Origin: a virus
Virus record (IMG/VR): IMGVR_UViG_3300028844_006574
Location: 27,376 to 91,375 of that record
Direction: 5' to 3' (one strand)
DNA length: 64,000 bases
Position 1 is the stretch's first letter; the number at the start of each line of letters is the position of its first letter. The notes below the pieces were generated by a model, which was not told the DNA's origin, did no database searches, and was given only the letters and a program-made list of their open reading frames with translations. A program made the translations under genes and the position numbers. Positions 20,752 through 58,911 of this stretch are shown here, piece after piece.

Positions 20752-21510
20752 ATGCACAGTGTTACTGTAGTAGTACCTATATTTAAACCGTGTAGTTTCC
20801 GGTCGCGTAATATAACCTTTTTGTTAAATGAGCTAAATAAACTACAAGTAAAAGTAATTGTTGTAGAACAAACACTAAACGATATTGCAAATAACAGGTT
20901 TGAAAAACTACCTAATGTAAACCAAGTCAATTTTGAAAAAAATACAAAACATTTTCACAAAACATATATATGTAATAAAATTATTGAACATATTGAAACA
21001 GAATATGTATGGTTTATCGACAGCGATTTTTACATGGATTTCAATACGATTCTTATAAATCGAGAATTTTCAAAGTTTGATTTCTTCAAACCGTTTGATA
21101 CATGTAAAGACTTAAACGAATTTCAGACTCAACAGCTGGTTACAACTAAACATATAAATGAAAACATGCTCAGAACAAATATGTCATCAGACCGGTTTAT
21201 TAAATATTTTGGCGCGTTGAGTTACATATGTAAAGTGGATAGTTTTAAAACCTCCGGGCAGTTGGATGAAAAATATATAGGCTGGGGTTATGAAGATTTG
21301 GATTTATTTTTAAATATATACAAGCAAAACTATAGTATAGGTGTAGCTCACGGTGTAAATGCTGTACACATGTGGCACCCTCCTGTGACAAATAAAGCTA
21401 AACATATGTTGATAAATAAAAAATATTTTGAAAATAAAGGTTACACTATTGACAGAGTTAAACAAGCTCACCGGGAATTGTTTGAAAGTAAAACCGTAAT
21501 TGACTATTAA
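20752..21510 (+). CDS. Glycosyltransferase (GT2/GT7-like, GT-A fold)
   Basis: VTVVVP, VIVVEQ, DxD motif FIDSD, LDEKYIGWGYEDLDL, HMWHP; TATAAATA upstream. Confidence 0.85.
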   Translation: MHSVTVVVPIFKPCSFRSRNITFLLNELNKLQVKVIVVEQTLNDIANNRFEKLPNVNQVNFEKNTKHFHKTYICNKIIEHIETEYVWFIDSDFYMDFNTILINREFSKFDFFKPFDTCKDLNEFQTQQLVTTKHINENMLRTNMSSDRFIKYFGALSYICKVDSFKTSGQLDEKYIGWGYEDLDLFLNIYKQNYSIGVAHGVNAVHMWHPPVTNKAKHMLINKKYFENKGYTIDRVKQAHRELFESKTVIDY

Positions 21511-21522
21511 ATACTAATATAC

Positions 21523-24500
21523 ATGTCAATCAACAGCACCAGATACTATTCGAGTGATGATACAACACTATCTGCTACAACCACTAAACCACTAACATAT
21601 GTTGAATGGTTACAGTATGAAACATCATTTGATAGGGCATCCGCATTTGAGCAGTACACAAGGTATCTATCTGAATGGTACAATAAGAGAGATGTAAACA
21701 ACCAAGTCACAGATGTACAGTATATAAGAAATATATACACTGAGTTATTGAAACAAATTTCCATAGAGTTTACCACACCTGATGAAAAGCGTTTTTTATC
21801 TAATATAGATTTTGAAAATAAAAACGACTTGGATGTTGCTTTACCTTTTTTCGCTAGAAAGTTAAAGCAAATCGCGATATATTATTCAAATCAAAGAGAA
21901 GAAATTAAATTTTCCGGTGTCAAAGCCAATTTGAAAGGTAGTGATTATGGAATCAATCAAGTTGTTTATAAACAAGTGGCCGAGATCATAAAATATGACC
22001 CTGACATTCAATCTCAATTGGCTGATATGGGACTATCACAGCAAGACGTACTAACGAATTTGAGAGTTGAAGTACAAGAATTGTATGACACGGAACAAAA
22101 CTATTATAATATACCATATGAATCTGATGCGAGTAGTTACACCGGTACCGGTTCAAATAGATATAATTACTTCAACATGTCGTTAATTCCTCAAAGAGAG
22201 AGAATGTTTTTATCTGATACATTTACCGAGACTGTGAAGGAATTGATAGAACAAGTACCGGTAATCATGTTTTCGGGTATCGAAAGCGTAACCCAATCAG
22301 ACTCGAAGGAAATGAGAGATATAGAGAATAGATCATATGCCATATCTGATATTATAACCGGAACGGAATTAGATAGATTAAATGATAAACAATTTTCAAA
22401 TTATTTGTCAACGGGTCAGTTAAATATAGAATATGAACAACTCGCTTTTAAAAAATACTGCGGTACCGACTATTATTATTTGAGCACCGGTGATACACTG
22501 TCCCAAGTAGTATCTTCCAAATTATTTGCGGCTGATAACCCACATAAAGAAATATTAAATAAATTTTACCCAACTATATTAACCACAAACGGTGAAGGGT
22601 TGTATAAGCAAGAATATATTGGAGGTTATTTTAACTCAAACAATGTGGGTATTTTAACATACACTACTTTAGATTTTGAGTATAAATTCAAACCAACTGA
22701 AACAAACAAAACATACTTTTTTCCAGACCCATCCACTGGCTCAACCGGGTTCTTTGGAGCTGATAGACCGTTTGAAACAGTAGTAGAGTATTATGAAAAT
22801 GTGAATTGGCAAAAAAACGCAATAACAACACATTATAATTTTGGTTTACAAAAACAGTACAAAAACCTCATCAGATTTACCCCGTATCAATCAAAATCTG
22901 ACACGTATATGACACAAACCGGTGTCAATAGAAGTACAGATGAATTTGACTTTTGGGAACAAAAAAGTGACAATGTCTGGAAAAACCCGGACATATACCC
23001 ACTTGGAGAAAATTACACACAACCAATAGACACACGATACGGTCAGTTGCTAGGAGGAGACAAGGTATTATATAAATGGAAATCTGATATATATGGTAAT
23101 GAATATACTTTAATTAAAACAAAGGTTGAACCAGTTGAACAACCACCTATCAACAAAAATTCAACTCTATATCAGACCGAGTTAAAAACCATACCGGAAG
23201 AGCACTTAAAACCCGCTAGTAGACATAAAAATAATATAGTACCCAAGCACCACAAAAAGAAAACTCTGACAGAACAACAATCGATCGCCGGTGAATTGTA
23301 TATTAGGAACAATACATATACCGGTATATTAACCTTAAATTCACCTCTGGTAAAACCTTTATACGAAAAATATACCGTACAGGGTAAGGTAACATATAGA
23401 GACTCGGAAATAACATTAACCGATATATCTTCAGAAATAACTAACGAGTTGCTAGATATTGATGTGATTTATGATACGATAGTCTTTGAAACTCGTAATT
23501 ACTTAGTATTTGAAAGAATATCCTACGATTATGATACCGGGAAAATAAGCACCGGTCATAATAATTTTTCGTTTTTGAAAAAAGACTATCATCAGAACCG
23601 GTATGAAAAAACAAGTAATTGGTGGTATGACAAATCTCAACAAAGTCTAATGGTGGTAAAAACTACCGTCCACCCGGAACTATCTGCAACTACAGACAAG
23701 ATGATTTACCCGGAAATATATGACTACAACATGAATTCCGGTGTTTTGAGACGTACGTACCCGGATCAAGACTTAACAGATGATCAGATTATATATGAAA
23801 CATCTGTATATTCTCTGTCAAGTATAAATAAATTCAATATAATAGACATAGATCGAGTAAAATCACCTAGAATAACATACAACAAAGATTCGGAAAGATA
23901 TACAATGACTCAACTAGGTTATGATATCGCGGATAATATATTTCTATTAAAAAACGACTTTTTAATGTATGATAACACGGTACAGGCAGTCAAACCAAGT
24001 ATCTACAAAAACAATTATATAATATATACACTGAACCCGGCTAATGATAGCATACAGAGAACATTTATGTATGAAACAAACCCTAGTCTGACATATCTAT
24101 CAATGAGTGAGTTTACATACATGCACGACGATGTTAGAAACTTGTTGTTCATGGGATGTCTGGAGAACCGAACTACTGAAAACCCAGACCCTCAACCCAA
24201 TAGCAGTTGTGTGTTTATACACGGTACAGAACCACAAAACATGCAAACAAACAGAGACATGGTGATGTGTTTTGACTTCATGACATGTGGGTTTATAGAC
24301 GGTGACACGACTGCAAAACCAAACGGGTTGAGTGTAGTGTTTTTCCAAGCACGTGTTAAGGATTTAAATTTAAAAAATGCTGCAGCTTCAGAACCGGAAT
24401 ATGAACTACTCGATGATGGTGGGTTAGGGCCTGCATTTACATATTTAGATGATGTAACCCGTGGTACAAACACTCAAAGTGCTTTATCCGGTTTAGACAC

Positions 24501-25254
24501 TGGACATGCATGTGTAGCTTTAGACGTTGTTGGTAATGTAGGTGGTAATACAAAAACACCAAACAACATAACCGTATTCGCGCAGTACGATACAGTGAAT
24601 AGATTTGAAGAAACAACGAATGTTGATTCAAGCAAGTATAACTTTTGGTCAGACATATCAGAATATACCGACTACACAGATTTACCATTTGTCAGGTGTA
24701 AAGTAGTGTTGACCGATTTAGGTAAGAGAATTAAAGTATATTTGAAACATCCTCATGAACCAGAGTTTGAATTGGTATCAGATGTGTCACTGCTCCCGGC
24801 TGCAGATGCTAGTAAAGTTTTTTACAACGACAAAATATACAAATGTTTAACAGACCATACATCATCAGTAACTATCAATATAGAGGATGACACACGAGTA
24901 AGCTACAACGGTACAATATACAGATGCACAAGAGACCACACAGCTTCTGTAACAGAAACACCTGATAGTACCCCATTTTATTGGAAAGCAGACAAGCAAT
25001 GGCCATATACATTAAATGCAACCCCATGGACCTCCGGGACAAATTATAAATCTAGTAACTGGATCATGATCCAAAGTTACGCACCTGCTCCCGGGGATTA
25101 TGAAACATGGGATTCCGGAGGTAACACCTATTACAAGGAGTATCAAGCACCTGATCGATTGAAAATGGCATTAGCAAGTAATACATCAGAAGCTAACACT
25201 GGATTGACTGTGATCCGGAACATAACGGTAACAGGAGCAGGTAACAACACATGA
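21523..25254 (+). CDS. Large virion structural protein with C-terminal lectin-like and CBM5/12-like modules
   Basis: 1243 aa with a late promoter. NGLSVVFF...GGLGPAFTY...CVALDVVGN is legume-lectin-like; VFYNDKIYKCLTDHTS and VSYNGTIYRCTRDHTA are carbohydrate-binding-like repeats. Confidence 0.55.
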   Translation: MSINSTRYYSSDDTTLSATTTKPLTYVEWLQYETSFDRASAFEQYTRYLSEWYNKRDVNNQVTDVQYIRNIYTELLKQISIEFTTPDEKRFLSNIDFENKNDLDVALPFFARKLKQIAIYYSNQREEIKFSGVKANLKGSDYGINQVVYKQVAEIIKYDPDIQSQLADMGLSQQDVLTNLRVEVQELYDTEQNYYNIPYESDASSYTGTGSNRYNYFNMSLIPQRERMFLSDTFTETVKELIEQVPVIMFSGIESVTQSDSKEMRDIENRSYAISDIITGTELDRLNDKQFSNYLSTGQLNIEYEQLAFKKYCGTDYYYLSTGDTLSQVVSSKLFAADNPHKEILNKFYPTILTTNGEGLYKQEYIGGYFNSNNVGILTYTTLDFEYKFKPTETNKTYFFPDPSTGSTGFFGADRPFETVVEYYENVNWQKNAITTHYNFGLQKQYKNLIRFTPYQSKSDTYMTQTGVNRSTDEFDFWEQKSDNVWKNPDIYPLGENYTQPIDTRYGQLLGGDKVLYKWKSDIYGNEYTLIKTKVEPVEQPPINKNSTLYQTELKTIPEEHLKPASRHKNNIVPKHHKKKTLTEQQSIAGELYIRNNTYTGILTLNSPLVKPLYEKYTVQGKVTYRDSEITLTDISSEITNELLDIDVIYDTIVFETRNYLVFERISYDYDTGKISTGHNNFSFLKKDYHQNRYEKTSNWWYDKSQQSLMVVKTTVHPELSATTDKMIYPEIYDYNMNSGVLRRTYPDQDLTDDQIIYETSVYSLSSINKFNIIDIDRVKSPRITYNKDSERYTMTQLGYDIADNIFLLKNDFLMYDNTVQAVKPSIYKNNYIIYTLNPANDSIQRTFMYETNPSLTYLSMSEFTYMHDDVRNLLFMGCLENRTTENPDPQPNSSCVFIHGTEPQNMQTNRDMVMCFDFMTCGFIDGDTTAKPNGLSVVFFQARVKDLNLKNAAASEPEYELLDDGGLGPAFTYLDDVTRGTNTQSALSGLDTGHACVALDVVGNVGGNTKTPNNITVFAQYDTVNRFEETTNVDSSKYNFWSDISEYTDYTDLPFVRCKVVLTDLGKRIKVYLKHPHEPEFELVSDVSLLPAADASKVFYNDKIYKCLTDHTSSVTINIEDDTRVSYNGTIYRCTRDHTASVTETPDSTPFYWKADKQWPYTLNATPWTSGTNYKSSNWIMIQSYAPAPGDYETWDSGGNTYYKEYQAPDRLKMALASNTSEANTGLTVIRNITVTGAGNNT

Positions 25255-27734
25255 AGACACCTTTCAACATACCTAAAATAGAGTTTGATATCACACATGA
25301 AAATCAAACATCCACTGGTGAAACTATCACACAGACATACGAACAAATCGTACTCAAAGGACCTCATGAAATACAGTTCAACATAAAATCCCAACCTGAG
25401 CTGATCAAGGTGGTATACAATCTTGACTACACTCAACAGTGTGGTACTACAACACAACCAGCGAGTAGTGAAGTACGATATGAACCCGAATTTACTACTG
25501 GTAGTAACAATTTGTTAACAGATCCCGCTGATTCAATAATCACTGGTCGGTTCTTTCCAGATAAATACCAGTACGAAACAACTGTATTCCCAGGCTTAAC
25601 AACTATAGATAAAGACCTTAACAAAGTCGTGCATCAGGTGAGTGTACGAGTTGCACAACCATCCGTACATGATTATGTCAATGATTTAGACATTGTGGAT
25701 GTAAGAACATTTACAAATCTGTCCGGTAAACGAGGCAAGGCATTGCTATTACTAGAGGACCAAACAAACAATTTTATAGTCCCTATGACATTGTTTGGAG
25801 AGAGACAATACACCAGTACAATTGAGCTAGGAGACGCACTGTTTGGGCAGATAGTATTCAATATATGTGTATCTAGAGCACCGTACGATAATGTCAAACC
25901 TGACGGTACTGAAGTGGTAACAACTAGTGAGTCATTTTTAGCAGAAACAGTTTTTTACGGTCAGACCAGGTTTGGTACATATGAAGCTGAAGGTTTCCCC
26001 GCAGCTGTTCGTGACCAATTCACAATAAACAACACAGGTAGTTATCCGCTCCGGGTTTTATCTGTTACTAACCCTAACACACCCTTTTATATGGATGGTA
26101 TTCAACTAGAAGGTGTATACTCCCCGGTAGACAGTGGATGTTTAAATTCAAAATCTATTTATGTTTATTTCTCCCCACCTGACTTGATTGATTCAGCGCA
26201 ATCACAAGGCCAAAATTTTTCTGTAACATATCAGGATAGCATCATCATTGAAAATGACAGTGTGAACAACCCCGAGATCAAAATAGATTTAACAGGTACC
26301 GCCAAATCCGGGTACTTGGTTGTAGATGGACCCGGTTTCACTAGTGATGACCCGGTTGAGTTTGACCCAACATTAGTTGGTGAAAAAACATTACAACCAA
26401 TCACAATAAGCAACAACGGTAGCTGCCCGGTCAAGATATTCGATATTGAATATGATGACGATGCGGAAATCACTCCAGATGGAGTGTCATACCCATTTGT
26501 TTTGTTACCTCAAGAATCTAGAACAATAAATGCGGCTTTCAGACCAACTGAAGCGCGTTACTTAGAAGATATAGCAGACGAAATCGCATACCCGGTACCA
26601 TATGAAGCTGTGATACCTAAAACCGTCAACTGGACCATACGTAGCAACGCGTTCAATGACATAACTGTACCAGCCGCTTTGACCGGTCATGCATTCACTA
26701 CTACAACTACCACAACTACTACTACAACAACTACTACAACAACTACTACAACCACCACAACTACAACTACAACTACAACTCAAAGTACCACAACCACAAC
26801 CACAACCACAACCACAACTACAACATGTCCTGTTGAACCGGAAGTGGTGTTTTTGAAGTGGCAAGTGAATCCAGTGTATGTTGTGGAAGGAAAAACAACA
26901 AGCATCAGAATAATTAGGGACAGTCGTAGTACATACAAAGGAGCTCTGCTTGTGGATTACCATCCAGAGGGTGTTACTGACAGTGCACAACCCGGAGAAG
27001 ATTATGATGAATCTGTGAACACTAGTGTGGCGTTCTTCCCTGAAAATGCCATGTCGACCGACATCATAATCGGTACATTGGCTGGTGGTGGTATCACGAT
27101 AGACGGTGTAGAGTTACAGATTTCAGGTTTGGAAACAGCTGAATATTTCAACATGATGTTGACCAACATCAGAGCCACTCCACCAGAGGGTACCGAGGAT
27201 GTGTTCCCGTACAGATGTGTACCTGGATATTTCGTAACCGATTCAGAACCAGAAGGTATACCGTCTGCAAGTGAACCAGTACCATACGTACCCAAGCCTG
27301 TGTTGATTCTAGACAAACCTGGTGATGCCAGCGTGTCGTTCAAAGGGAGTTGTACATTGGAAGACGTGACCGCGTTGTTGAGATGTGTGGATGATGATGT
27401 TACACTGGAACTATTAGAAGTGGATGCGCCAGGAGACGGTGCAACATTGTTGGAAGTGTTCAACAAATACACGGGTCAGCTGATCACCACAGTACCGGTG
27501 GCCAACTTACAAAACGGACCGGTGTATATAGATGTAAAGGAACACCAAGATGAATTTGGTTATGTACAAATACTGTATGAAGCATGCGGTTGCTGTATAG
27601 AGAAGGTGTATTCATGCACTTGTTCAATAATAGATGTTGAAGGAGAGTTGGTATGTTGTAACATCGCAGGTGTTGATGGAGAGCTTGTATGTTGTGAGAT
27701 AACACAGGTAGAAGGAGAACTTAGTTGCGGTTAA
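25251..27734 (+). CDS. Virion adhesin-like protein: Ig-like (ASH-type) domains, poly-Thr linker, Calx-beta-like domain, Cys-rich C-terminal repeats
   Basis: FTINNTGSYPLRV and ITISNNGSCPVKI Ig-like starts; a 41-Thr tract; VVEGKTTSIRIIR...AQPGEDY...ETAEYFNMMLTN (Calx-beta-like); three V(E/D)GEL(V/S)C repeats. Confidence 0.65.
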   Translation: MKTPFNIPKIEFDITHENQTSTGETITQTYEQIVLKGPHEIQFNIKSQPELIKVVYNLDYTQQCGTTTQPASSEVRYEPEFTTGSNNLLTDPADSIITGRFFPDKYQYETTVFPGLTTIDKDLNKVVHQVSVRVAQPSVHDYVNDLDIVDVRTFTNLSGKRGKALLLLEDQTNNFIVPMTLFGERQYTSTIELGDALFGQIVFNICVSRAPYDNVKPDGTEVVTTSESFLAETVFYGQTRFGTYEAEGFPAAVRDQFTINNTGSYPLRVLSVTNPNTPFYMDGIQLEGVYSPVDSGCLNSKSIYVYFSPPDLIDSAQSQGQNFSVTYQDSIIIENDSVNNPEIKIDLTGTAKSGYLVVDGPGFTSDDPVEFDPTLVGEKTLQPITISNNGSCPVKIFDIEYDDDAEITPDGVSYPFVLLPQESRTINAAFRPTEARYLEDIADEIAYPVPYEAVIPKTVNWTIRSNAFNDITVPAALTGHAFTTTTTTTTTTTTTTTTTTTTTTTTTTTTQSTTTTTTTTTTTTTCPVEPEVVFLKWQVNPVYVVEGKTTSIRIIRDSRSTYKGALLVDYHPEGVTDSAQPGEDYDESVNTSVAFFPENAMSTDIIIGTLAGGGITIDGVELQISGLETAEYFNMMLTNIRATPPEGTEDVFPYRCVPGYFVTDSEPEGIPSASEPVPYVPKPVLILDKPGDASVSFKGSCTLEDVTALLRCVDDDVTLELLEVDAPGDGATLLEVFNKYTGQLITTVPVANLQNGPVYIDVKEHQDEFGYVQILYEACGCCIEKVYSCTCSIIDVEGELVCCNIAGVDGELVCCEITQVEGELSCG
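26697..26825 (+). repeat. Poly-threonine coding repeat (28 Thr, Gln-Ser, 13 Thr)
   Basis: Mixed ACT/ACA/ACC codons in frame within 25251..27734. Confidence 0.95.
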
Positions 27735-27789: not shown

Positions 27790-28536
27790 ATGTCCTGCGA
27801 AAACTGTAACATTATAATCCGAAACGTTATCGGAACCCCGGCTTCGTATAAAATCCGGTGGACAAAACTAAATTCTTTAAACGAGGTTGTATATATTAAC
27901 AATGGACCAATCACAGCTAATGATATAAGAGAGACAAATCTGGAGATCTTCGCCGGCGGGCCCGGGCATCCGGATTACGGTCAGTATTGGGATGGTAACA
28001 ACATAAACATCAGATTTGAAAACTTTTTTAACCCAGATTGTTACCTTGATGTAACATACAGCTGTGAACCAGCGACAACTACCACATTACCATCAGTTGA
28101 TTGTTGTGACGGCATGGATTACGCGATAAAAACAACAGGCTCCGGAGCCGATCAATCACCATTGGCTGGGTTATCAACAACAGGTTTTGCTCAGGGCACA
28201 TATCAATATACGCAGACAGGTACATTTACATACACAGTTGATATACAAGGTACAGGTAAGTTATGCTACGGTGGAATAAATCAGACGGCAACCCCTCGAG
28301 GCTCCGGGCTTGGTTGGTCATGTGTATTGGTCAATGGTACTGGTCAAGAAGTAGAAGCTGATGGAACAACTTTAGTACAAGGCTTTGCCGGTCCGGTTGG
28401 TAGAATAACAATGATTAGGCCATGGTCAGATAATGTAAACGGTAACTATGTAACATACGTATCTCCAAGCGGTATATGTTTTAGAGGGCAACTCGACGAA
28501 AATGGACCATTTTTCGTAGAATTGAGAGAAGTGTAA
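27790..28536 (+). CDS. Hypothetical late protein, probably virion-associated
   Basis: TAAATA upstream; Cys- and Gly-rich with a short PATTTTLP linker. Confidence 0.65.
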   Translation: MSCENCNIIIRNVIGTPASYKIRWTKLNSLNEVVYINNGPITANDIRETNLEIFAGGPGHPDYGQYWDGNNINIRFENFFNPDCYLDVTYSCEPATTTTLPSVDCCDGMDYAIKTTGSGADQSPLAGLSTTGFAQGTYQYTQTGTFTYTVDIQGTGKLCYGGINQTATPRGSGLGWSCVLVNGTGQEVEADGTTLVQGFAGPVGRITMIRPWSDNVNGNYVTYVSPSGICFRGQLDENGPFFVELREV

Positions 28537-29093
28537 TGAGATTGTTACAATTACAAGACGAGGTGCAATATTACGTAGGGTGGTACGGAGTGTGTAAAGA
28601 AGACGGTACCCCGGATGCTAGTGATAGTGACGCGCCCTGTCAAAATATAGATTTAAATACAGGTAGATACGCAGACGGTACTTTATTACAATGGGACAAT
28701 GGGAAGGGAAACTTCCGCGACCAGTTACAGTTTGTACAACAAGTTCGGGATGATGGTAAAGACTTTGGGTTGTATGATATGAAAGTTCTAGATGAGATCC
28801 GACAATTTTTTATGTTTAGATACGGTCTCAGCACTAGTGATGCAGCACAAGCTGTTGACCAAGCCATCCGGGAGGAGCTGAACACTCCTCCACCAACCGG
28901 GCCTTTAACAAATATTGTAAATTTTGCTGACCTTGTGTGCGGTAAAGCATATACTATTGTAGTTAAACCTGGTACTGGCGGAACTGGTGTTGGTTCTGTT
29001 ACATGTCAAATAGACATACCGGAGTTTAGATACATGTATGTAGGTACAGCTGATTCCGGATTAAGATTAACTAACGAGTGTTGTTACAGTTAA
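28536..29093 (+). CDS. Hypothetical protein
   Basis: 185 aa, coupled to the previous gene by a TAATG overlap. Confidence 0.65.
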   Translation: MRLLQLQDEVQYYVGWYGVCKEDGTPDASDSDAPCQNIDLNTGRYADGTLLQWDNGKGNFRDQLQFVQQVRDDGKDFGLYDMKVLDEIRQFFMFRYGLSTSDAAQAVDQAIREELNTPPPTGPLTNIVNFADLVCGKAYTIVVKPGTGGTGVGSVTCQIDIPEFRYMYVGTADSGLRLTNECCYS

Positions 29094-29135
29094 TATAACA
29101 TTGCATATTAAGTAAAATAACCATATATATAGTAT

Positions 29136-30251
29136 ATGAAGTTAACAATAGGCATGTCATGTTATGACGATTATGATGGTGTGTGGTTCACCATTCAGAG
29201 CATACTAATGTATCACTCTGAGTGTGTAGACGATATAAATTTTGTTGTTATTGATGGCAACCCGGAAAGCTCTCACGGTAAAGCTTGTGAGCAACTGATC
29301 AGCAAACTGAAAAACAAACACGGTAACAACGGATTGTATGTGAAAAATGTTTCTTGGCCTGGTACAGCCAGTAGAGACTACATATTCCAGTATGCAAAGA
29401 CACCATATGTGTTAGTTGTTGACAGTCATGTACAGATTGTACCAGGTGCGATCAAAAAATTAATAAAATATTATGATAAACAACCAGATTGTAAAAATTT
29501 GATACACGGACCATTGCTAGATGGCGCCGGTAACACATTTGCTACTGAGATGTCACCAGAATGGGATTACAACATGTATGGTAAATGGTTGGTAAACCCT
29601 GACCGGTTGAAATTAAACAAAGAGTACGAGATTGAAATCATGGGCCTAGGCTTATTCAGTTGTGTCAAGTCTAACTGGTTAGGATTCAACAAAAAGTTCA
29701 GAGGTTTTGGTGGGGAAGAAGGGTACATACACAAAAAATATAGAAAAGCCGGTCACAAATCTGTAGCGTTACCCTGGCTCAAATGGAATCATCGTTTCAC
29801 CAGACCTAGAGGAGTACCTTACCAAAACGAATACATTGACCGGGTGAAAAACTATTTAATCGGCTGGAACGAGCTTGGTGAAGACACCACAGAAATAATA
29901 GACTACTACAGCACCAGCAACACACAGCCTGGCCAGGAGCGAGAGGCTATAAACGAATCAGATCTGCTGGTGCTACAAGATAAACTGTCACAAACCAAAT
30001 TAAACTCTGTAGCACCTGACGCTCTAGCAGAAGAACATCGTCAGTTACGTGCTCGAGTGATTGAGTTGGAGATGAAATTGATGGAACTAGCTTTCTCACC
30101 AGAGTCTAACAAAGTAAAAGAGATGAGTCTGTCGGAATACACACAACAAACCGAACGATCAACAAATGTATTAGAAAAACCACCAACTGACCCGGTAAAG
30201 GCGATAGAGGATTCATTCAAACAAAAATTAATCCAAGAACCACAGGGTTAA
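29136..30251 (+). CDS. GT2-family glycosyltransferase with C-terminal coiled coil
   Basis: LTIGMSCYDD, FVVIDG, VLVVDSH, GLGLFSC, GFNKKFRGFGGEEGYIH, WNHRF. Confidence 0.85.
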   Translation: MKLTIGMSCYDDYDGVWFTIQSILMYHSECVDDINFVVIDGNPESSHGKACEQLISKLKNKHGNNGLYVKNVSWPGTASRDYIFQYAKTPYVLVVDSHVQIVPGAIKKLIKYYDKQPDCKNLIHGPLLDGAGNTFATEMSPEWDYNMYGKWLVNPDRLKLNKEYEIEIMGLGLFSCVKSNWLGFNKKFRGFGGEEGYIHKKYRKAGHKSVALPWLKWNHRFTRPRGVPYQNEYIDRVKNYLIGWNELGEDTTEIIDYYSTSNTQPGQEREAINESDLLVLQDKLSQTKLNSVAPDALAEEHRQLRARVIELEMKLMELAFSPESNKVKEMSLSEYTQQTERSTNVLEKPPTDPVKAIEDSFKQKLIQEPQG

Positions 30252-43636: not shown

Positions 43637-43644
43637 ATATGAAT

Positions 43645-44445: not shown

Positions 44446-44453
44446 ATAATTAA

Positions 44454-45256: not shown

Positions 45257-45437
45257 TTTCAAAGGCCGTATACTCGCTGTATGTGTTTTTATTAACATGT
45301 ATGTCTCTATTGTATATGTAACAACTGGTAGTTATGTAGCTATATTACCGGCATGCATGGCAATGTTATGCGGTATATCTACATACAACCCTAAATACCA
45401 GCAGCTTGACGCAACAGATTTGGAGAATAACAGGTGA
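45234..45437 (+). CDS. Small membrane protein
   Basis: Two hydrophobic segments; overlaps both neighbours. Confidence 0.55.
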   Translation: MLPWKNLNFKGRILAVCVFINMYVSIVYVTTGSYVAILPACMAMLCGISTYNPKYQQLDATDLENNR

Positions 45438-46300
45438 ATATCAATTTAGAATTTGACATAGTAATTTGTGTAGGTCCGAAGGATTCGGAGAATATCCACG
45501 CGCAAATAGAATATACTAAAAATAACATTGTAGGTTACAGAAACATTTATTTGGTCACTCCGATTGAAAATTTGAGAATTGATAATTGTACTACAGTAAA
45601 TGAAAATAGTTTCCCATTCGGATTGGCTGACTGTCAAAATAGATACATACTGTCAGAAAAAGACAAAGAAAGAGGAGAAGAAAGCCGCGCTGGTTGGTAC
45701 TTACAACAATTACTAAAACTATACGCCGGTATTTGCATTCCAAATATTCTCGATAGATGGTTAGTAATTGATGCAGACACATATTTTTTAAAACCAACTA
45801 CCTTTATAGAAAATGCCAAGTGCTTGTATAACACAGGTTACCGATCCACATCCGCGATATGTGGTTTCCAATACCATAGACCATACTTCGCGCATATGGG
45901 AAAGCTTGGAATAGGGTTGAAACGGTATGATAAAAATATATCTGGAATATGCCATCATATGATGTTTGAAACAAAATATGTCAAAGAGATATTGACCCGT
46001 GTAGAGAATATTTTTAATGAAAATTTCTATACTGTTTTTCTAAATAATATAGACAGTAAGCAATTATCCGGTGCATCTGAATATGAAATTTATTTTAACT
46101 ATATGTTGATAAACCATCCAGATAAAATAAAAATTAGAAACCTACAATGGAGTAACATAGGTATAAGAGACTGGGATTACCTCTCACTCGACAAGCCCAC
46201 TACCATACCACCTGAATGGGCTGATCTTACACTCAAGAGTGAAATAAACTACGATTATGTTTCTTGGCATCGCTGGGGACGCCGTAAAAAACTCGACTGA
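45434..46300 (+). CDS. GT-A-like protein (DUF6492-like), putative glycosyltransferase
   Basis: GWYLQQLLKL, WLVIDADTYFLKP (DxD), HHMMF, SEYEIYFNY. Confidence 0.65.
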   Translation: MNINLEFDIVICVGPKDSENIHAQIEYTKNNIVGYRNIYLVTPIENLRIDNCTTVNENSFPFGLADCQNRYILSEKDKERGEESRAGWYLQQLLKLYAGICIPNILDRWLVIDADTYFLKPTTFIENAKCLYNTGYRSTSAICGFQYHRPYFAHMGKLGIGLKRYDKNISGICHHMMFETKYVKEILTRVENIFNENFYTVFLNNIDSKQLSGASEYEIYFNYMLINHPDKIKIRNLQWSNIGIRDWDYLSLDKPTTIPPEWADLTLKSEINYDYVSWHRWGRRKKLD

Positions 46301-46307
46301 AGTTAAT

Positions 46308-46661: not shown

Positions 46662-46698
46662 TGGATAATATTTTAAGAATAATATATAATATGTTGAT

Positions 46699-47256
46699 AT
46701 GTTAATAAGTTTCACAGGAGCTCAAAGTACAGGTAAAAGTACATTGTTGCGGCGCATGCTTCAACATGAAAAATTGAGAAAATGTACGTTTATCAAAGAA
46801 GTTACACGCAAAGTCGCCTCACAAGGTATCAAGATCAATGATGAAGGTGACAACATGACTCAACTGTTCATATTGAGCGAGCATTTACATAATCACCATT
46901 TGCCCGGTTGTGTAGTTTTGGATCGTTGTATTATAGATGGTTATATATACACCAAGTGGTTGCATGAACAGGATAAGGTGGAAGGATGGGTGCTGAAATA
47001 TGCTTGGGATTTACACAACGTGTTAGTTGACAAACTAGACGTTATATTCTACACGGAACCAGACGATATCAAATTGGAAGACGATGGCGAGCGTAGCACG
47101 TGTGAGAGTTTTAGAAACGATATATTGAGAATGTATGAAGACTATTTGACCTGGAACCCGAAAGTGAGAAAAAAACTGGTGAGGTTATCCGGTACTGTTG
47201 AAGAACGGTTTAAAACAATACAAACGACTTTTGAAAATTATGACAAAATTAGATAA
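46699..47256 (+). CDS. P-loop nucleotide kinase (AAA_28 / dNMP-kinase-like)
   Basis: ISFTGAQSTGKSTLL, VLDRCIID, LEDDGER, LSGTVEER; preceded by TGGATA-17-TATAAT (46662-46690). Confidence 0.75.
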   Translation: MLISFTGAQSTGKSTLLRRMLQHEKLRKCTFIKEVTRKVASQGIKINDEGDNMTQLFILSEHLHNHHLPGCVVLDRCIIDGYIYTKWLHEQDKVEGWVLKYAWDLHNVLVDKLDVIFYTEPDDIKLEDDGERSTCESFRNDILRMYEDYLTWNPKVRKKLVRLSGTVEERFKTIQTTFENYDKIR

Positions 47257-48198: not shown

Positions 48199-48822
48199 AT
48201 GAGTAACGAGTCCAACATTTTACGAGCTGGTCCAGCCAACCCTACACATTATAACAAACAGCGTCAACGCCATCGTTTGATGGAGCAAGAGGTTGACATG
48301 AACGACACCGCGTTCCGACAAGAACAAATGCTCAAAAAAGAGAAGATTGGTGACGCCACTGCTATGGTAATAATGAAAGCTGAGGAACAAGCAGACGCTG
48401 GACAACCTATGACCAAAAAAGAGTTAGCTAATGCTTGTATAGCTGCTCTATCACAAGCCAATTTTGAGATGGCTGATGACCAAGGTAAAATGGTACCTCG
48501 AGGTGGTGATGGAAGCGCATTCAGCCTCCCAGAGTATGGTTATTACATGGATTTAATAGAGATGGCCACCGAAGGTGTACCCATAGCATCCACCGGTGGT
48601 CGTGTCACAACAAATGGTGTTAAACCCATGACCGCAGAAAGATTCCGCAACATTTTCGAACAAGCTCTCCGGAAATTGAGAGGTACAATTGCTGACAACC
48701 CAGAGCTTAGTGAAGTGCTTCCTCAGTATCTGAAAGAAAATAAAACCAAACAAACACTCGGGTTCAATAAATTCAACACACTAGAAGTACTAAACGAATA
48801 TATCAGTAGCCATAACGGTTGA
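48199..48822 (+). CDS. Late protein with a sigma70 region-4.2-like helix
   Basis: MTAERFRNIFEQALRKLR versus RpoD VTRERIRQIEAKALRKLR; exact TATAAATA 5 nt before the ATG. Confidence 0.55.
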   Translation: MSNESNILRAGPANPTHYNKQRQRHRLMEQEVDMNDTAFRQEQMLKKEKIGDATAMVIMKAEEQADAGQPMTKKELANACIAALSQANFEMADDQGKMVPRGGDGSAFSLPEYGYYMDLIEMATEGVPIASTGGRVTTNGVKPMTAERFRNIFEQALRKLRGTIADNPELSEVLPQYLKENKTKQTLGFNKFNTLEVLNEYISSHNG

Positions 48823-48852
48823 TTGACATTATAATTGGTCATATATAATATT

Positions 48853-49077
48853 ATGACCGATTACATAAATGGTACCAAGTTCGTTGTTACAGTAAAGAAC
48901 AAATGGACTAACAGTGAGCGTAGAGTTATAGTGAGCAAATACAATGATGTTCAACTAGCTCATAAGTATGCATACTACCAGCATACTTCGAACCTTGAAG
49001 ATATTGTTAGTATCGTGAACCCTAGAAAACAAACAGTATTCACACTCCGCGGAGGTTTTCGAAGACCCGGTAAATGA
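48853..49077 (+). CDS. Hypothetical protein
   Basis: ATG at 48853, downstream of TTGACA (48823-28) and TATAAT (48844-49). Confidence 0.55.
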   Translation: MTDYINGTKFVVTVKNKWTNSERRVIVSKYNDVQLAHKYAYYQHTSNLEDIVSIVNPRKQTVFTLRGGFRRPGK

Positions 49078-50123
49078 GCGCTACAGGGTATGTAGTGTTT
49101 TGTGAAGATAAATACTACTTGTTATGGCAACTAGAGTTGTTAATCGAATCTATAACAAACCGTGCTGGTGTACATGAAAAAGACATAGTAGTATTATATG
49201 CAGACCCTAGCTATCACCACAGGAGTGTAGAGTGGGGACAATCACCATACTTGAAAAGTTTGATGAAACATCACCATGATGTAAAATTTTATCCTGTACA
49301 AAACTGGGGCCGGCGAAACTGGTATTTTCGTTTTGAAGATAATAAAACTTGGCACCCTAAACAGTACCCGGGTATAAACAAATGGCTGAGTTTATGTGAA
49401 GCAGCCAACGCCGGTTGGTTAGATGATTTTACTGAAGTTGTACTTTTAGAACAAGATTTGTGGTTCAGCGGCAATTTTCCAAAATTAGGTCATGGAAATT
49501 GTGTTACAGCCAATTGGTTGTGTGACAGATACAACGCGTTTGAGGTGAATGACAAAACAGATGATATGAACACCCCTGGATTCGACTTGGATGATATCAT
49601 GAAGCTGTGCAAAGTACCATCGTCTCATCGGAAAAGATGGACCTCCGGAGCCATTGTGTTCAAATTTGTCACCAAGCAACTAGTACAAGCCAAGTTTTTA
49701 AATGCACTGGTCAATTACAACCAATTGCTGATGACACTAGGTGAACTAGCACTACCACAGGGCGCTCGTCATGAAACAGACATGGTCGCTCCATCTTTGG
49801 CCATGGCCCACTGTGGTATGCATTGTAGAACGGTTGAGGATTTACAATGGAAATCAGACGTTTGGACCTGGCACCAAAAACCACCAGACAATGTAGTTGT
49901 TCATTACGGTTGGGACTTCGCTGCATACCCACATTTGAACTCAACGTTTAGTAAATTTAAATATACTAACAAAGGTCCATGGACAGACAAAGAGGTTTTG
50001 ATGGCAGAATATAATGACCTTGCATTTGATTGGATTAAATCATTATACAACGATATATTCAAAATAGGTGAAAAAAACATACAAAGGGTCTGCGATAGAC
50101 AGGTTTATCTCCCAGTTATATGA
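49074..50123 (+). CDS. GT96/GT95-like protein O-glycosyltransferase (peptidyl-serine galactosyltransferase / HPAT-like)
   Basis: VFCEDKYYLLWQLELLIES, YPGINK, VVLLEQDLWF, TDMVAPSLAMAHCGMH and VVHYG..F....FSK follow the plant SERGT1 motif order as I recall it (VEC..YFDWQ, YPAINKP, VVILDADM, SEMYGYSFGAA, HYG..F....F.K). Confidence 0.55.
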   Translation: MSATGYVVFCEDKYYLLWQLELLIESITNRAGVHEKDIVVLYADPSYHHRSVEWGQSPYLKSLMKHHHDVKFYPVQNWGRRNWYFRFEDNKTWHPKQYPGINKWLSLCEAANAGWLDDFTEVVLLEQDLWFSGNFPKLGHGNCVTANWLCDRYNAFEVNDKTDDMNTPGFDLDDIMKLCKVPSSHRKRWTSGAIVFKFVTKQLVQAKFLNALVNYNQLLMTLGELALPQGARHETDMVAPSLAMAHCGMHCRTVEDLQWKSDVWTWHQKPPDNVVVHYGWDFAAYPHLNSTFSKFKYTNKGPWTDKEVLMAEYNDLAFDWIKSLYNDIFKIGEKNIQRVCDRQVYLPVI

Positions 50124-50515
50124 TATTAAAAAATATATTAACAAAGGTTGATATACAACAATGTATATCCGAGCTAACAATACTACATCGTCAGCATTAT
50201 TATGAGCCTGGTTACATTGTGTCTAGTAAAATCATTAGCGAAAAATATAACAATGTATTTGGTAAACTTTTGGATTATAAACACACGACACAGAAACACA
50301 CTATAGACTTTCAATTATCAAATGAAACATACCAATTGTACATACAAAACAAATTGTTGAGAGACTGGTTTGTTGAAAAATCGCAACCATATTCTATAAT
50401 GTATTATATGGATATCAATTACCCTAAAAAATTAACTCCGATGGCAGTATTACTTGAAGTAATATTTGAATTGACTTATCATTCTTTCCCAGAAACTGTT
50501 GAAAACCCTGTTTAA
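50120..50515 (+). CDS. Hypothetical protein
   Basis: 131 aa; ATGA overlap with the previous gene. Confidence 0.55.
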   Translation: MILKNILTKVDIQQCISELTILHRQHYYEPGYIVSSKIISEKYNNVFGKLLDYKHTTQKHTIDFQLSNETYQLYIQNKLLRDWFVEKSQPYSIMYYMDINYPKKLTPMAVLLEVIFELTYHSFPETVENPV

Positions 50516-52589: not shown

Positions 52590-52590
52590 C

Positions 52591-55355: not shown

Positions 55356-56810
55356 ATGATCATTAATTATTTAAAAGTTTACACTCCCCCGTCACCCAAA
55401 GTTAGATATGGAATCAATCAAGACGGAGGTTATGTTGGAGTTAAAACATCAACTGATATTTTATTATCAGGTGGGATTGGTACAGATATTTCATTTGAGT
55501 TAGATTTTGTTAAAATGAACGATGTGAATGCGGTTTGCGCGGATTCTATATTTTATAATGGTAATGCTCGATTTATTGATTTGGAAGATTTTGTAAACAA
55601 CAGTCAATTTAAAAATGATCCTTATATTTCAAAATTGCAATTCGTAAACAAATTCGTTGGTAAAGACGAAAACGATAAATCCACAAATTATCATAATTTT
55701 TTAAAACAATTCAGTGACATTACATTGAAACTTGACATTGAAGGTGGGGAATTTGATTACATTAATTCATTATCTAATAAACAATTAAATAAAATAAACC
55801 AAATTTTTCTTGAAGTGCATTGGTTAGATAAATTAAATGATTTTTCTTTTTTTGAAAAATTAAATCAGAATCATATATTGATTCATGCACACGGCAATAA
55901 CAACGGTCGTGTGTTCAGAGTTGGCAAATCGAGAATACCAAAGGTACTAGAAGTCACTTATTTACATAAAAAGTTTTTTAGTGGTGAATACAAGTTAAAT
56001 AGTGAACCACTGCCGTCCTCAATAGACTTTCCAAATCGTATCAAAAGAGCCGATTTGAGTTTAAATTTTCCACCATTTGTTAATTTTAAAAAAATGAAAA
56101 TACCAAAAATAATACATCAGACATGGGTCTTTAAGAACGATGATTACATAAAAGGTTTGCGAGATAAATGGTTAGGTTACAATCCAGAATATGAATATTT
56201 TATATATAACAATAAAGACAATTTAAAATTCATCAAAGAAAATTTTAATGAAAGAATTTATAACTGCTACTCTAGAATATTGAACGGATCAGCTAAGGCC
56301 GATTTTTTCAGATATGCAGTTTTATATATCAAAGGTGGTGTATATTTAGATATAGATTTTTTACCCAAAGCTAGCCTCTCAGATTGTATAGAAGAAAATG
56401 ATGAACTTATCATAACTCATGACGACCAAGTTCGCCGTAGACATGCAAATCCAAACGGTGTCTTTAACGCCTTTATTTGTGCAAAACCCAAGCATGAATT
56501 ATTATTAATTCTAATTAATCAAATTTGTGAGTATATAGAGAATGGTGAACATAATAATGTTCGACATGCAATACATTCACTTACAGGTTCGAAGCTTTTT
56601 TCTGAAAAATTTAGAAATTATTTCAAAACGCAGAATATCAAAGAATGTAAAACTGATTCCTACAAAATAGTAACACACCATGCGTTTACACCTACACCCC
56701 ATAATAACACAATCACTTGTGGGGATAAAATTTTATTTACATCCCAAAATAGCATACCAAATAGAAGTTTGATCCCACATTATAACTCAAATTTTGAGTT
56801 ATATAGATGA
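55356..56810 (+). CDS. Fusion of FkbM-like SAM methyltransferase and GT32 (DXD) glycosyltransferase
   Basis: N-terminal RYG..QDGGY, LSGGIG.DISFE, LKLDIEGGE, HAHGNN; C-terminal IPKIIHQTW and KADFFRYAVLYIKGGVYLDID. Confidence 0.85.
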   Translation: MIINYLKVYTPPSPKVRYGINQDGGYVGVKTSTDILLSGGIGTDISFELDFVKMNDVNAVCADSIFYNGNARFIDLEDFVNNSQFKNDPYISKLQFVNKFVGKDENDKSTNYHNFLKQFSDITLKLDIEGGEFDYINSLSNKQLNKINQIFLEVHWLDKLNDFSFFEKLNQNHILIHAHGNNNGRVFRVGKSRIPKVLEVTYLHKKFFSGEYKLNSEPLPSSIDFPNRIKRADLSLNFPPFVNFKKMKIPKIIHQTWVFKNDDYIKGLRDKWLGYNPEYEYFIYNNKDNLKFIKENFNERIYNCYSRILNGSAKADFFRYAVLYIKGGVYLDIDFLPKASLSDCIEENDELIITHDDQVRRRHANPNGVFNAFICAKPKHELLLILINQICEYIENGEHNNVRHAIHSLTGSKLFSEKFRNYFKTQNIKECKTDSYKIVTHHAFTPTPHNNTITCGDKILFTSQNSIPNRSLIPHYNSNFELYR

Positions 56811-56850
56811 AGAACCATATCAATTTGAAGAGGTTTTAAATTAAAATATT

Positions 56851-57693
56851 ATGAAAACAAAAACATTTATCATAGGAGAGATAGGCATCAATCACAACGG
56901 GGATCTTGACATAGCCAAGAAGCTTATAGACATCGCAGCTTGTGCTGGATTTGATGCAGTCAAGTTTCAGAAACGAGACCCGGATACATGTGTACCTGAG
57001 AAACAAAAACAAGTACTGCGGCAAACCCCTTGGGGCCAGATACCGTACATTGATTACAAGAAGCGTATCGAGTTCACCGGTGATCAATATGATGAGATCG
57101 ATGTATATTGCTTCGAGAAAGGCATCAGTTGGAGCGCTAGTCCTTGGGACATGAACAGCGCCAGGTTTTTAAATCGTTACAACCTCACATGGGTCAAAAT
57201 AGCCAGCGCCAGCATCACGGATCTGAAACTCGTGAGCTATTGCGCCAAAACATTTGACAAGTTGATAATAAGCACCGGCATGAGCACCATGGAACAGGTG
57301 ACCAAAGCTGTCGATACTGCCAAGAAACATTTACCTCAGGAAAACATAACACTGCTACATTGCAACAGCAGCTACCCAGCACCAATTGATGAATTGAACT
57401 TGAACGTGATAACCAAACTCAAACAACTGTACCCTCGAATGGATGTTGGTTACAGTGGCCATGAATACGGTTTGTTAGCATCCATGGCAACAGTAGCACT
57501 GGGTGCCACCTGTGTAGAACGACACATCACACTGGACAAAAGCATGTGGGGTAGTGATCAAGCATGTTCGTTAGAACCACATGCCATGTTCAAGCTGGTC
57601 AGAGGCATCCGCGAACTGGAGCTGGCTCTAGGTTCAGATGAAAAATGCATGACACCGTCTGAACTGGCAAAGGCTGAGACATTGCGTAAATAA
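56851..57693 (+). CDS. neuB: Nonulosonic acid synthase NeuB family (no C-terminal antifreeze-like domain)
   Basis: IGEIGINHNGDL, DAVKFQKR, KIASA, ISTGMS, LLHCNSSYP, GYSGHE, ERHITLD...GSDQ..SLEP. Confidence 0.95.
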   Translation: MKTKTFIIGEIGINHNGDLDIAKKLIDIAACAGFDAVKFQKRDPDTCVPEKQKQVLRQTPWGQIPYIDYKKRIEFTGDQYDEIDVYCFEKGISWSASPWDMNSARFLNRYNLTWVKIASASITDLKLVSYCAKTFDKLIISTGMSTMEQVTKAVDTAKKHLPQENITLLHCNSSYPAPIDELNLNVITKLKQLYPRMDVGYSGHEYGLLASMATVALGATCVERHITLDKSMWGSDQACSLEPHAMFKLVRGIRELELALGSDEKCMTPSELAKAETLRK

Positions 57694-57697
57694 ATGT

Positions 57698-57910
57698 ATG
57701 GACGTGGATCGATTAGAGGTTCGAAAAATTATCGCACAGGAAGTGAAACCTAACGAAAGTTTGATCGTGTGGTCTGACATGTACATGAAATATATAAAAA
57801 AAACATTTGAAGAGCAAACAACGGTGTATGAGGTAGACCCCCAACTAGCCAAAGATCGACTGATCACATACATAACCGAGCGTATGCAAAATGAGCTCAG
57901 AACCGATTAA
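57698..57910 (+). CDS. Hypothetical protein
   Basis: 70 aa; TAAATA 5 nt upstream. Confidence 0.55.
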   Translation: MDVDRLEVRKIIAQEVKPNESLIVWSDMYMKYIKKTFEEQTTVYEVDPQLAKDRLITYITERMQNELRTD

Positions 57911-58253
57911 AAAGACCATTTGTTTCGATTTTGACGGTACCATATGTGACACCGACGAGACTCAACCTGTGCCAGGACGTTATTATAACAGCACACCCAA
58001 AGCCCGTATTGTGGACATAGTGAAACGATTTTACAACAAAGGATACACGGTGGTAATAGACACCGCTCGTGGGAGTTCTGCCACTGGTTTGACTAAATAT
58101 TACAAGCGATGGAAATTGAAAAAACTCACGCAAACGCAACTCAAACGCTGGGGAGTACCCTACCACAAACTTCGTGTCGGGACGAAGATTGCTGCTGACC
58201 TGTACATAGACGACAAAAGTTTACCTGTTAGTATTTTTGAAAAGGAAAACTGA
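57891..58253 (+). CDS. HAD-superfamily phosphatase (capsule-biosynthesis type)
   Basis: ICFDFDGTIC (DxD), TARG, K..ADLYIDDK; lies between neuB and neuA. Confidence 0.88.
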   Translation: MSSEPIKKTICFDFDGTICDTDETQPVPGRYYNSTPKARIVDIVKRFYNKGYTVVIDTARGSSATGLTKYYKRWKLKKLTQTQLKRWGVPYHKLRVGTKIAADLYIDDKSLPVSIFEKEN

Positions 58254-58257
58254 GATC

Positions 58258-58911
58258 ATGTCACGACCCACAATCGTAATACCAGCACGTGCTGGTAGCA
58301 AGGGATGGCCCCGGAAAAATTTGAAACTGTTTGACCATACAGCTCAAATCATTCCGGATGAACATCGTAAATCTGTGATAGTGACAACTGACGACCCTGG
58401 TGTAGCTGGTATGGTAGAGACATACGGTTTCAAAGTACATGAACGTGACCCAACACTAGCACAAGATGACAGTGATATCAGAAGTGTGTTGAAGGATGTT
58501 GTGAAGCAGCGCAAAGTGGGTACCACACAGACAGTCATCATGTTGTATCTGACATACCCGCAGAGAACATGGGATGATGTGACCGGCATGTACAACAATT
58601 TTGTATCAACCAAAGCTCGGAGCATGCTATGTGGTCAACCGGTCAGAACTCACCCTTGTTTGACAATGTTTGCTGACAAAGACATGGCTGGTAGACAAGT
58701 GATACCACACGAGTATTACCAACGACAACAATACCCGGATTGCTTTGAACTGTCACATTACATGTGCATGTTCCGCGCGGGAGAGTTGAACAAATTGAAC
58801 AAAAACATGTACAATGAACAAACAAAATACTATCAAATAGACAGAGTAGTTGACGTTGACAGTGAACAAGACTATAAAAATTATATAGAAACATATGAAC
58901 ATAAAGATTAA
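58258..58911 (+). CDS. neuA: CMP-nonulosonate synthetase (acylneuraminate cytidylyltransferase)
   Basis: IVIPARAGSKGWPRKN, VTTDD, LAQD, LYLTYPQR, QRQQYP, VDVDSEQD; start moved to the ATG at 58258. Confidence 0.9.
   Translation: MSRPTIVIPARAGSKGWPRKNLKLFDHTAQIIPDEHRKSVIVTTDDPGVAGMVETYGFKVHERDPTLAQDDSDIRSVLKDVVKQRKVGTTQTVIMLYLTYPQRTWDDVTGMYNNFVSTKARSMLCGQPVRTHPCLTMFADKDMAGRQVIPHEYYQRQQYPDCFELSHYMCMFRAGELNKLNKNMYNEQTKYYQIDRVVDVDSEQDYKNYIETYEHKD

Follow-up and report, generated by a model that had tools for sequence, protein, structure and literature searches.

A 64-kb stretch of viral DNA, comprising bases 27376-91375 of the 91,375-bp IMG/VR record IMGVR_UViG_3300028844_006574 and referred to here as the window, encodes a 371-amino-acid (aa) glycosyltransferase (GT) of family GT2 at 29136..30251 on the plus strand. 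Relatives of this enzyme are found beside genes for proteins with long threonine tracts in other genomes, and we lean towards the view that the phage encodes a cytoplasmic O-glycosylation of its own Thr-rich fibre and neck proteins, begun by the 29136 enzyme (genes are named here by their lowest position in the window). In the proposed scheme the soluble GT2 would, late in infection, put the first sugar on threonines in long Thr tracts, its likely targets being an 827-aa protein encoded two genes upstream and, possibly, a Thr-rich insert in the gp13-like neck protein encoded three genes downstream. The glycan would possibly be extended by a 252-aa GT2 (20752) and a GT8-like enzyme (49074), and a GT42-like enzyme may cap it with a nine-carbon acid sugar, activated with cytidine monophosphate (CMP), from a NeuB-HAD-cytidylyltransferase pathway. 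The starting points are the observed gene content, the folds, a promoter-like motif and the adjacency of 29136-family and poly-Thr genes across genomes; from these we infer the transfer, the sugars, the order of the steps and any tie between the acid-sugar pathway and the virion, and we regard capping with the nine-carbon acid sugar as plausible.

The adjacency was counted in the best 80 of at least 424 IMG/VR loci of the 29136 family, and an open reading frame (ORF) was taken as Thr-rich if it held a run of at least 6 Thr or at least 50% Thr in 30 residues. A Thr-rich ORF ended at most 3 kb upstream of the GT gene, on the same strand, at 57 of the 80 loci, and at 41 it was the immediate upstream neighbour, with a typical junction of -9 to +7 nucleotides (nt) to the GT start. 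Among the other ORFs of the same loci only 8 of 1321 were Thr-rich (odds ratio 172, Fisher p 2e-48, a value that ignores relatedness). When the enzymes were clustered at 70% identity, the pairing was seen in 11 of 23 clusters. An earlier, sequence-only reading of the window had proposed looking for co-occurrence of Thr-rich proteins with a transferase in related phages, and it is for the family of GT2 29136 that such co-occurrence is found. Relatives of the enzyme also occur in bacterial genomes, where a Thr-rich ORF lay upstream in 24 of 80 loci against 1 of 252 background ORFs, a rough figure because stop-to-stop ORF calls are noisy in high-GC DNA.

The 49 distinct carriers of the tract range from 109 to 2437 aa. 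Their non-repeat parts, which include Calx-beta-like, BNR-repeat and Cys-rich domains, are unrelated, and the tract alone is common to all. It lies mostly in the C-terminal third of the carrier, and in many carriers, including that of the window, a Cys motif comes after it. Most loci also carry homologs of the phage's replication genes, and they therefore belong to T4-like phages with the cassette at the end of the tail-fibre block. In the window both genes lie on one strand, the carrier up to 27734 and the GT from 29136 onwards within an operon that has a late-type motif, and two relatives (L156 and L157) share this carrier/GT layout. We found no published description of a GT2/poly-Thr cassette in the literature consulted.

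The candidate main acceptor is the 827-aa fibre-module protein (25251..27734, plus strand). The sequence-only reading had noted a 41-Thr tract in this adhesin-like protein, and the tract is indeed present at nt 26697-26825, where 28 Thr, Gln-Ser and 13 Thr give 41 Thr in 43 residues, encoded by a mixture of ACT, ACA and ACC codons. The N-terminal half, with Ig-like features, precedes the tract, and a beta-rich C-terminal domain that opens with Cys-Pro follows it, with Cys-Cys repeats at the end of the protein. The tract is unchanged in a strain of 97% nucleotide identity. Another relative, G001 (IMGVR_UViG_3300021964_009390, 222 kb), shows synteny with the record across nearly all genes at 30-95% protein identity, and its ortholog of the 827-aa protein, 45% identical, has a Thr tract at the same position (26+6+8 Thr). 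The terminal Cys-Cys repeats (G-E-L-x-C-C-x-I; window 27600-27734) are short and number 3 copies here and about 6 in G001 (L033 13300-13636). The preceding gene (21523..25254, plus strand) encodes a 1243-aa fibre-module protein with a CBM5/12 domain (Pfam CBM_5_12, 1e-7), and its G001 ortholog has gained an 11-Thr run.

The candidate second acceptor, which would form a collar, is the 661-aa gp13-like neck protein or head-tail adaptor (34454..36439, plus strand). Its adaptor domain is recognized by PHROG on residues 454-645. The Thr-rich insert of some 340 aa described in the sequence-only reading is also there: it spans 341 aa (residues 140-480, about nt 34871-35893) and contains 25% Thr, against 8% elsewhere in the protein. 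In the relative L158, whose GT is 61% identical to 29136, a shorter Thr-rich repeat of about 60 aa occupies the same site of gp13, and a 290-aa ORF of G004, a distant T4-like phage, matches gp13 along 50 residues only. The gene order in the window is the 827-aa Thr-tract protein, two small genes, GT2 29136, a 780-aa protein, portal and gp13. In the whole 91-kb record only three proteins were flagged as Thr-rich (Thr run of at least 4 or dense Thr window); neither the capsid protein (6% Thr) nor the tail-tube protein (7% Thr) is among them, and inspection of both revealed no Thr-rich tail.

The 29136 protein consists of a catalytic domain of about 290 aa (Pfam Glycos_transf_2) followed by a coiled or low-complexity tail, and it is the candidate initiating Thr O-glycosyltransferase. 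Two motifs, D96-x-H98 and GFGGEEGYI (G190-F-G-G-E-E-G-Y197), are invariant across 25 diverse family members; we take them to parallel the DxH and GGE motifs of the animal polypeptide GalNAc-transferases (GT27). Pfam found no ricin-type lectin domain in the protein. A profile search of PDB sequences with the family returned only generic GT2 matches (TarP, chondroitin synthase), and no GT27 chain was among them. The family is large: at least 424 relatives were confirmed in IMG/VR, 1.84 billion proteins yielded 1,308 representative clusters at E<=1e-30, and the number of clusters formed at 90% identity was 1,418. Its members are unnamed or carry automatic labels only, and a search of 50,697 isolate phage records found none. 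In long relatives the GT is fused to GT25, sulfotransferase, methyltransferase or PqqD-type domains (P0149, P0202, P0206 and P0225 are examples), and G001 has GT25, GT10 and two sulfotransferases as genes of their own. PqqD-type domains bind peptides, so these fusions fit a peptide acceptor, and the fusions as a whole suggest that peptide recognition and multi-step glycan building may be combined within single polypeptides.

The phage itself is a distant uncultured T4-like myovirus, because its capsid protein shares only about 35% identity with its closest counterparts in the phage records, most of them from cyanophages, and because megablast of the head genes against the 50,697 phage records gave zero matches. 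Searches of the same records by tblastn with genes 49074, 25251 and 29136 were equally empty. The window encodes a T4-type portal (PF07230, 1.7e-101), a Gp23-type major capsid protein (8.4e-90), a prohead protease and a gp6-like baseplate wedge besides the gp13-like adaptor, while sheath, tube and baseplate genes lie directly upstream of it. The record is rated 43% complete by CheckV, and a scan of the window for tRNA genes found none. The G001 contig, rated 100% complete, begins inside gp13 (ends 1-782 and 221635-222461) and lacks the portal and 29136 region, so that comparison with G001 covers the window outside 27.8-34.4 kb; the assembly probably broke in Thr-rich repeat DNA. Two further genes of the structural region may be mentioned. 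A TnsA-like endonuclease gene (36439-36897; PF08722, 8e-19; 80% identical in G001), which may be of the homing type, lies between gp13 and the prohead genes, and the gene for a full-length ClpB/ClpA-type double-AAA+ chaperone (41132-43570, minus strand), which runs in the opposite direction, comes right after the capsid gene; it is conserved in G001 and present in a shorter form in G002-G004.

Expression of the transferases together with the structural genes is suggested by a short motif. Of the 41 copies of ATAAATA in the 91-kb record, 22 stand 10-28 nt upstream of a start codon, where 0.8 would be expected, and the motif heads the portal, gp13, protease and 780-aa genes, GT2 20752, and the operons holding 29136 and 49074 (for example at 20741, 27769, 30280, 32654, 34442 and 48187). 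It stands 11 nt before the start of 20752, and 21 nt before 27790, where two small genes (248 and 185 aa; 27790..29093, plus strand; gene gaps -1 and 42 nt) head the operon with GT2 29136. The exact T4 late-promoter octamer TATAAATA showed no enrichment in comparison (5 found, 6 expected). We read ATAAATA as a putative late promoter. No membrane segments were predicted in any of the phage's transferases.

The second GT2-type enzyme, with 252 aa, is encoded at 20752..21510 (plus strand) between two fibre/baseplate-module genes for proteins of more than 1200 aa. It is of the GT2/GT7C type with a GT-A fold (Pfam Glyco_tranf_2_2 and Glyco_transf_7C) and has DSD and GWGYED motifs, and Pfam thus agrees with the sequence-only reading in placing two GT2-type genes, 20752 and 29136, inside the structural cluster. 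Its ortholog in G001 is found in the same place at only 32% identity. The family has just 5 relatives in IMG/VR, the G001 ortholog included, and Thr-enriched neighbours in 2 of them, too small a number for a judgement; an hhalign comparison of the 20752 and 29136 families was uninformative.

A four-gene operon with a late-type motif at its head (48199..50515, plus strand; 207, 80, 349 and 131 aa) contains the 349-aa product of 49074..50123, in which the sequence-only reading had seen a GT96/GT95-like enzyme. We found no match to a Pfam family at E<=0.01, to PHROG or to PDB sequences for this protein. Its AlphaFold model (predicted local distance difference test score, pLDDT, 90.4) was nearest to retaining GT8-type GT-A enzymes in VIA-align: LgtC with Z 14.9 (root-mean-square deviation 3.8, 238 aligned), glycogenin with 14.7, UGGT and Skp1 alpha-GalT both with 13.9, and GlyE (PDB 5gvv) with 13.4. 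No solved GT96/GT95 structure turned up in the fold searches with the model. The modelled fold thus makes 49074 a GT8-like enzyme that lies outside the Pfam families at sequence level, and the analogy to plant Ser/hydroxyproline glycosylation, drawn by way of GT96/GT95, is unsupported. Of the mucin-like virion O-glycosylation proposed in that reading, the Thr-rich structural proteins together with soluble, late-motif transferases have stood, while the GT96/GT95 part found no support. The enzyme has 69 metagenomic homologs, none of them named. A second, more distant T4-like lineage (G002/G004) holds a 39%-identical homolog along with mucin-like (TTTTSTTL)n proteins and a GT2/GT32/methyltransferase cluster, a co-occurrence at genome level only.

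Two further genes had been listed as transferases. The 288-aa protein at 45434..46300 (plus strand) matches DUF6492 (Pfam, 1.1e-6) as proposed, and its identity as a GT was not confirmed; hhalign against the GT8-like family was uninformative. It is inserted within a co-oriented cluster of formyltransferase-like, dATP/dGTP diphosphohydrolase N-domain, AAA_28 P-loop and QueF (nitrile reductase) genes (43639-48166) that looks like a 7-deazaguanine DNA-modification set. No such insertion is seen in G001, where the DUF6492 ortholog adjoins two sulfotransferase genes and a GT10 gene. They belong to a minus-strand glycan island (34.4-43.3 kb of G001; L010 14463-20000, L011 1-3267) of amidohydrolase, ATP-grasp, WbqC, PIG-L deacetylase, GT25, GT10 fucosyltransferase-like, two sulfotransferase and DUF6492 genes; the part of the phage that would match this island falls beyond the contig end. 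The other gene (55356..56810, plus strand) encodes a 484-aa fusion, and of its two proposed parts the GT32 (DXD sugar-binding) domain is well matched (Gly_transf_sug, 1.2e-17), while the FkbM-type methyltransferase region is weak (Methyltransf_21, 1e-3, below cut-off). The fusion is missing from G001, and G004 has a separate GT32 gene. It abuts, with zero gap, the end of an intact PrkA/DUF444/SpoVR operon (50535-55355), which follows a sigma-70-like TTGAAA-N17-TATAAT promoter and is 73-84% identical in G001.

Directly downstream, at 56851..58911 (plus strand), lie genes for a NeuB-family synthase (280 aa), a 70-aa ORF, an HAD phosphatase (120 aa) and a CMP-sugar-type cytidylyltransferase (224 aa). 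The NeuB-HAD-NeuA assignment of the sequence-only reading is borne out by Pfam, with NeuB PF03102 matched over positions 1-241 of 241 (256 bits, 4e-76) in 56851, weak HAD matches in 57891 and CTP_transf_3 (9e-10) in 58237. Together the three would supply a nonulosonic or ulosonic acid as the sugar donor. The synthase ends at residue 280 and thus lacks the C-terminal SAF domain, and in NCBIfam it scored 269 bits with NeuB_NnaB (cut-off 400) and 194 bits with PseI (cut-off 340), both below cut-off, with NeuB the better match. G001 shares the NeuB-HAD-cytidylyltransferase set, and among the 50,697 isolate or database phage records just 3 contain a NeuB homolog. The mannose-6-phosphate isomerase cupin that had been assigned to the donor pathway was also recovered: 11053..11406 (minus strand) encodes 117 aa corresponding to the isomerase C-terminal domain of bifunctional ManC (Pfam MannoseP_isomer, 1.7e-33; NCBIfam GMP_PMI, model residues 356-466), and it could supply mannose-6-phosphate. 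An 87%-identical copy is encoded elsewhere in G001, beside a dehydratase-like gene. The HAD phosphatase and the cupin would suit a phosphorylated route of the 2-keto-3-deoxy-nonulosonic acid (KDN) or N-acetylneuraminic acid (Neu5Ac) type. NeuC was looked for in the complete relative G001 and not found, which matches a KDN-type route (cupin-NeuB-HAD-cytidylyltransferase), yet G001 has dehydratase-like and aminotransferase-like genes.

A transferase for such a donor, not listed in the sequence-only reading, may be encoded 5.8 kb before the window, between terminase and tail genes (G000 20700-21608). The model of the 302-aa product (pLDDT 86) has a GT42-like sialyltransferase fold, with Z 12.2 for Cst-I (189 aligned, 18% identity), 12.0 for CstII, 11.1 for the P. 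multocida sialyltransferase, 8.4 for Maf and about 7 for GT29. At the sequence level there was no Pfam match at E<=0.01, neither to CST-I nor to Maf, and no PDB-sequence match. The invariant residues of the family (N36, S39, R58-C59-N60, D156-M-Y158 and H220...D225) appear to resemble CstII motifs. With this gene and NeuB-HAD-cytidylyltransferase, both a donor pathway and a transferase are present. The gene is syntenic in 7 relatives, at 41-49% identity as against 59-98% for its neighbours, and forms a hypervariable cassette (G000, loci L323-L328; 43-49% as against 60-98% for the flanking terminase, gp19-like and sheath genes). Relatives of the gene lie mostly on contigs of 4-35 kb, and co-occurrence with NeuB was read in G001 only.

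Several observations weigh against a phage-directed O-glycosylation begun by 29136. At the thresholds used, 12 of the 23 dereplicated clusters lack a Thr-rich neighbour; in the window the GT stands two genes from the tract carrier rather than adjacent to it; and in none of the top 150 representatives of the family is the GT fused to a Thr tract. The closest solved sequence match of the family is TarP, a teichoic-acid GlcNAc transferase, and GT42 and GT8 enzymes classically act on lipooligosaccharide. ATAAATA is unusually near start codons (11-16 nt before 20 of 22) and also precedes the formyltransferase-like gene, and for these two reasons its reading as a promoter goes no further than inference. 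If it were a T4-type late promoter, the near-fixed spacing would leave almost no leader, and a role in translation initiation, as an alternative or in addition, is conceivable. Finally, NeuB-HAD-NeuA and the GT32 fusion lack ATAAATA and lie among auxiliary genes, like the 'LPS' (lipopolysaccharide) islands of cyanophages (PMC1079782), and nothing we found ties the acid-sugar pathway, DUF6492 or the GT32 fusion to the virion in preference to the host surface.

The last points lead to the alternative that has held up best, possible in our judgement but doubtful, namely that the GT8-like and GT42-like enzymes, the GT32 fusion, DUF6492 and NeuB-HAD-NeuA with the cupin remodel the LPS or capsule of the host, for example as a block to superinfection, and that the Thr tracts are a separate matter. 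The nearest structural matches, LgtC and CstII/Cst-I, are lipooligosaccharide enzymes, and the far greater divergence of the GT42-like gene than of its neighbours is a pattern typical of surface-glycan tracking. The setting of NeuB-HAD-NeuA and the GT32 fusion without a late-type motif points the same way, as does a Kyanoviridae record with cupin, NeuB and HAD genes, the only three matched by window proteins in a co-directional run of 30 ORFs (about 21 kb). The 24 sugar genes of P-SSM2 have likewise been proposed as LPS genes that alter the cell surface (PMC1079782). On the other hand, remodelling of the host would not explain why 29136-family genes lie next to poly-Thr genes. Among the proteins scanned there was neither a flippase nor a polymerase nor an initiating phosphoglycosyl transferase, solubility is predicted for every transferase, and the GT2 and GT42-like genes are embedded in structural operons with a placement that is kept in relatives. 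A strictly lytic T4-like phage would also gain little from changing a cell that is soon to be lysed.

An extended form of virion glycosylation can be drawn from the same genes, and we consider it unlikely in its entirety. It would be a sialomucin-like coat in which poly-Thr stalks on a tail-fibre-module protein and a Thr-rich neck collar are O-glycosylated by phage enzymes, extended and capped with the acid sugar, also fucosylated and sulfated in relatives, and diversified between strains by fast-evolving transferase cassettes.

It is more improbable still that the Thr tracts carry no sugar and serve as flexible or extended linkers and that the GT2 acts elsewhere, be it another site on the protein, a host receptor or a small molecule. 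Poly-Thr is common in viral proteins, and more than 120 IMG/VR contigs, giant viruses included, hold at least 18 ACN triplets. In a reverse test on 80 IMG/VR loci selected solely by 18 consecutive ACN triplets, (ACN)18, the Thr run lay inside an ORF in 71; a strong 29136 homolog (E 5e-79 to 2e-48) was found within 3 kb of the Thr-run gene in 3 loci, which speaks for the pairing, and no such GT was nearby in the remaining 77, and the phage's other sugar enzymes had no match in these loci except one GT32. Half of the dereplicated GT clusters having no Thr-rich neighbour would be in line with bare linkers as well. In contrast, the tract is the sole feature shared by 49 otherwise unrelated neighbours of the GT, its enrichment over background is about 170-fold, and some family members carry the peptide-binding PqqD-type domain. 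Glycosylation of modified DNA bases by some of the transferases is barely credible: DUF6492 (45434) does lie between formyltransferase-like, dGTP diphosphohydrolase and QueF genes, and phage transferases for the hypermodification of DNA are well known (cited in PMC12619734), but the DUF6492 ortholog of G001 adjoins sulfotransferase and GT10 genes instead, no hydroxymethyl-pyrimidine pathway was seen, and the fibre-module GT2 genes would be untouched by it.

O-glycosylation of fibre and neck proteins by the phage's own enzymes would differ from each of the closest known systems in acceptor, enzyme set or location. Phages other than some mycobacteriophages are not known to have been shown to glycosylate their virions with enzymes of their own. 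There, phage GTs O-glycosylate the phage's own structural proteins in the host cytoplasm, and the acceptors named are the C-termini of capsid and tail-tube proteins (Freeman et al. 2023, as relayed in PMC12619734 and PMC11256854), whereas the candidates here are poly-Thr tracts of fibre-module and neck proteins, and the enzymes form another, much larger set that extends to an acid-sugar pathway. The GT27 polypeptide GalNAc-transferases of animals, which act on the Thr/Ser repeats of mucins, are alike in their Thr-rich repeat substrates and in being GT-A enzymes with D-x-H in place of DxD and a G-G-E-E type motif; they are located in the Golgi and have a ricin-type lectin domain, whereas 29136 would be cytoplasmic and shows no such domain in Pfam. 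The serine-rich repeat adhesins, represented by the GlyE system of Streptococcus pneumoniae, resemble the window in that soluble, cytoplasmic GTs are encoded beside a surface protein with Ser/Thr repeats, and 49074 matches GlyE itself. However, the GtfA/GtfB pair and the accessory Sec system are absent here, the repeats are Thr-rich and the carrier would be a virion protein. The Maf flagellin and CstII/Cst-I systems share a NeuB-family synthase, a cytidylyltransferase and a sialyltransferase-fold enzyme with the phage, although Pfam recognises the 302-aa protein as neither. Maf places pseudaminic or legionaminic acid directly on Ser/Thr of flagellin in the cytoplasm. Large sets of nucleotide-sugar and GT genes are also found in the 'LPS' clusters of T4-like cyanophages such as P-SSM2, for which a host-surface function has been proposed (PMC1079782), and in chloroviruses and mimiviruses, which glycosylate capsids or fibrils with their own sugar and GT sets (PMC9614988), in that case on other acceptors and in eukaryotic hosts. 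A paper on 'moraphages' in which virion glycosylation is mentioned deals with a different lineage and was set aside.

If glycosylation of fibre and neck proteins by 29136 and its relatives is real, a large uncultured share of aquatic T4-like phages would decorate these proteins with mucin-like O-glycans. This would bear on the sticking of virions to particles, mucus and cells, on their protease resistance and on escape from recognition, and the 'LPS gene' islands of marine phages would in part have to be re-read as virion-directed. The 29136 enzyme and its natural poly-Thr partner would then also offer a compact route to mucin-type glycoproteins in the bacterial cytoplasm.

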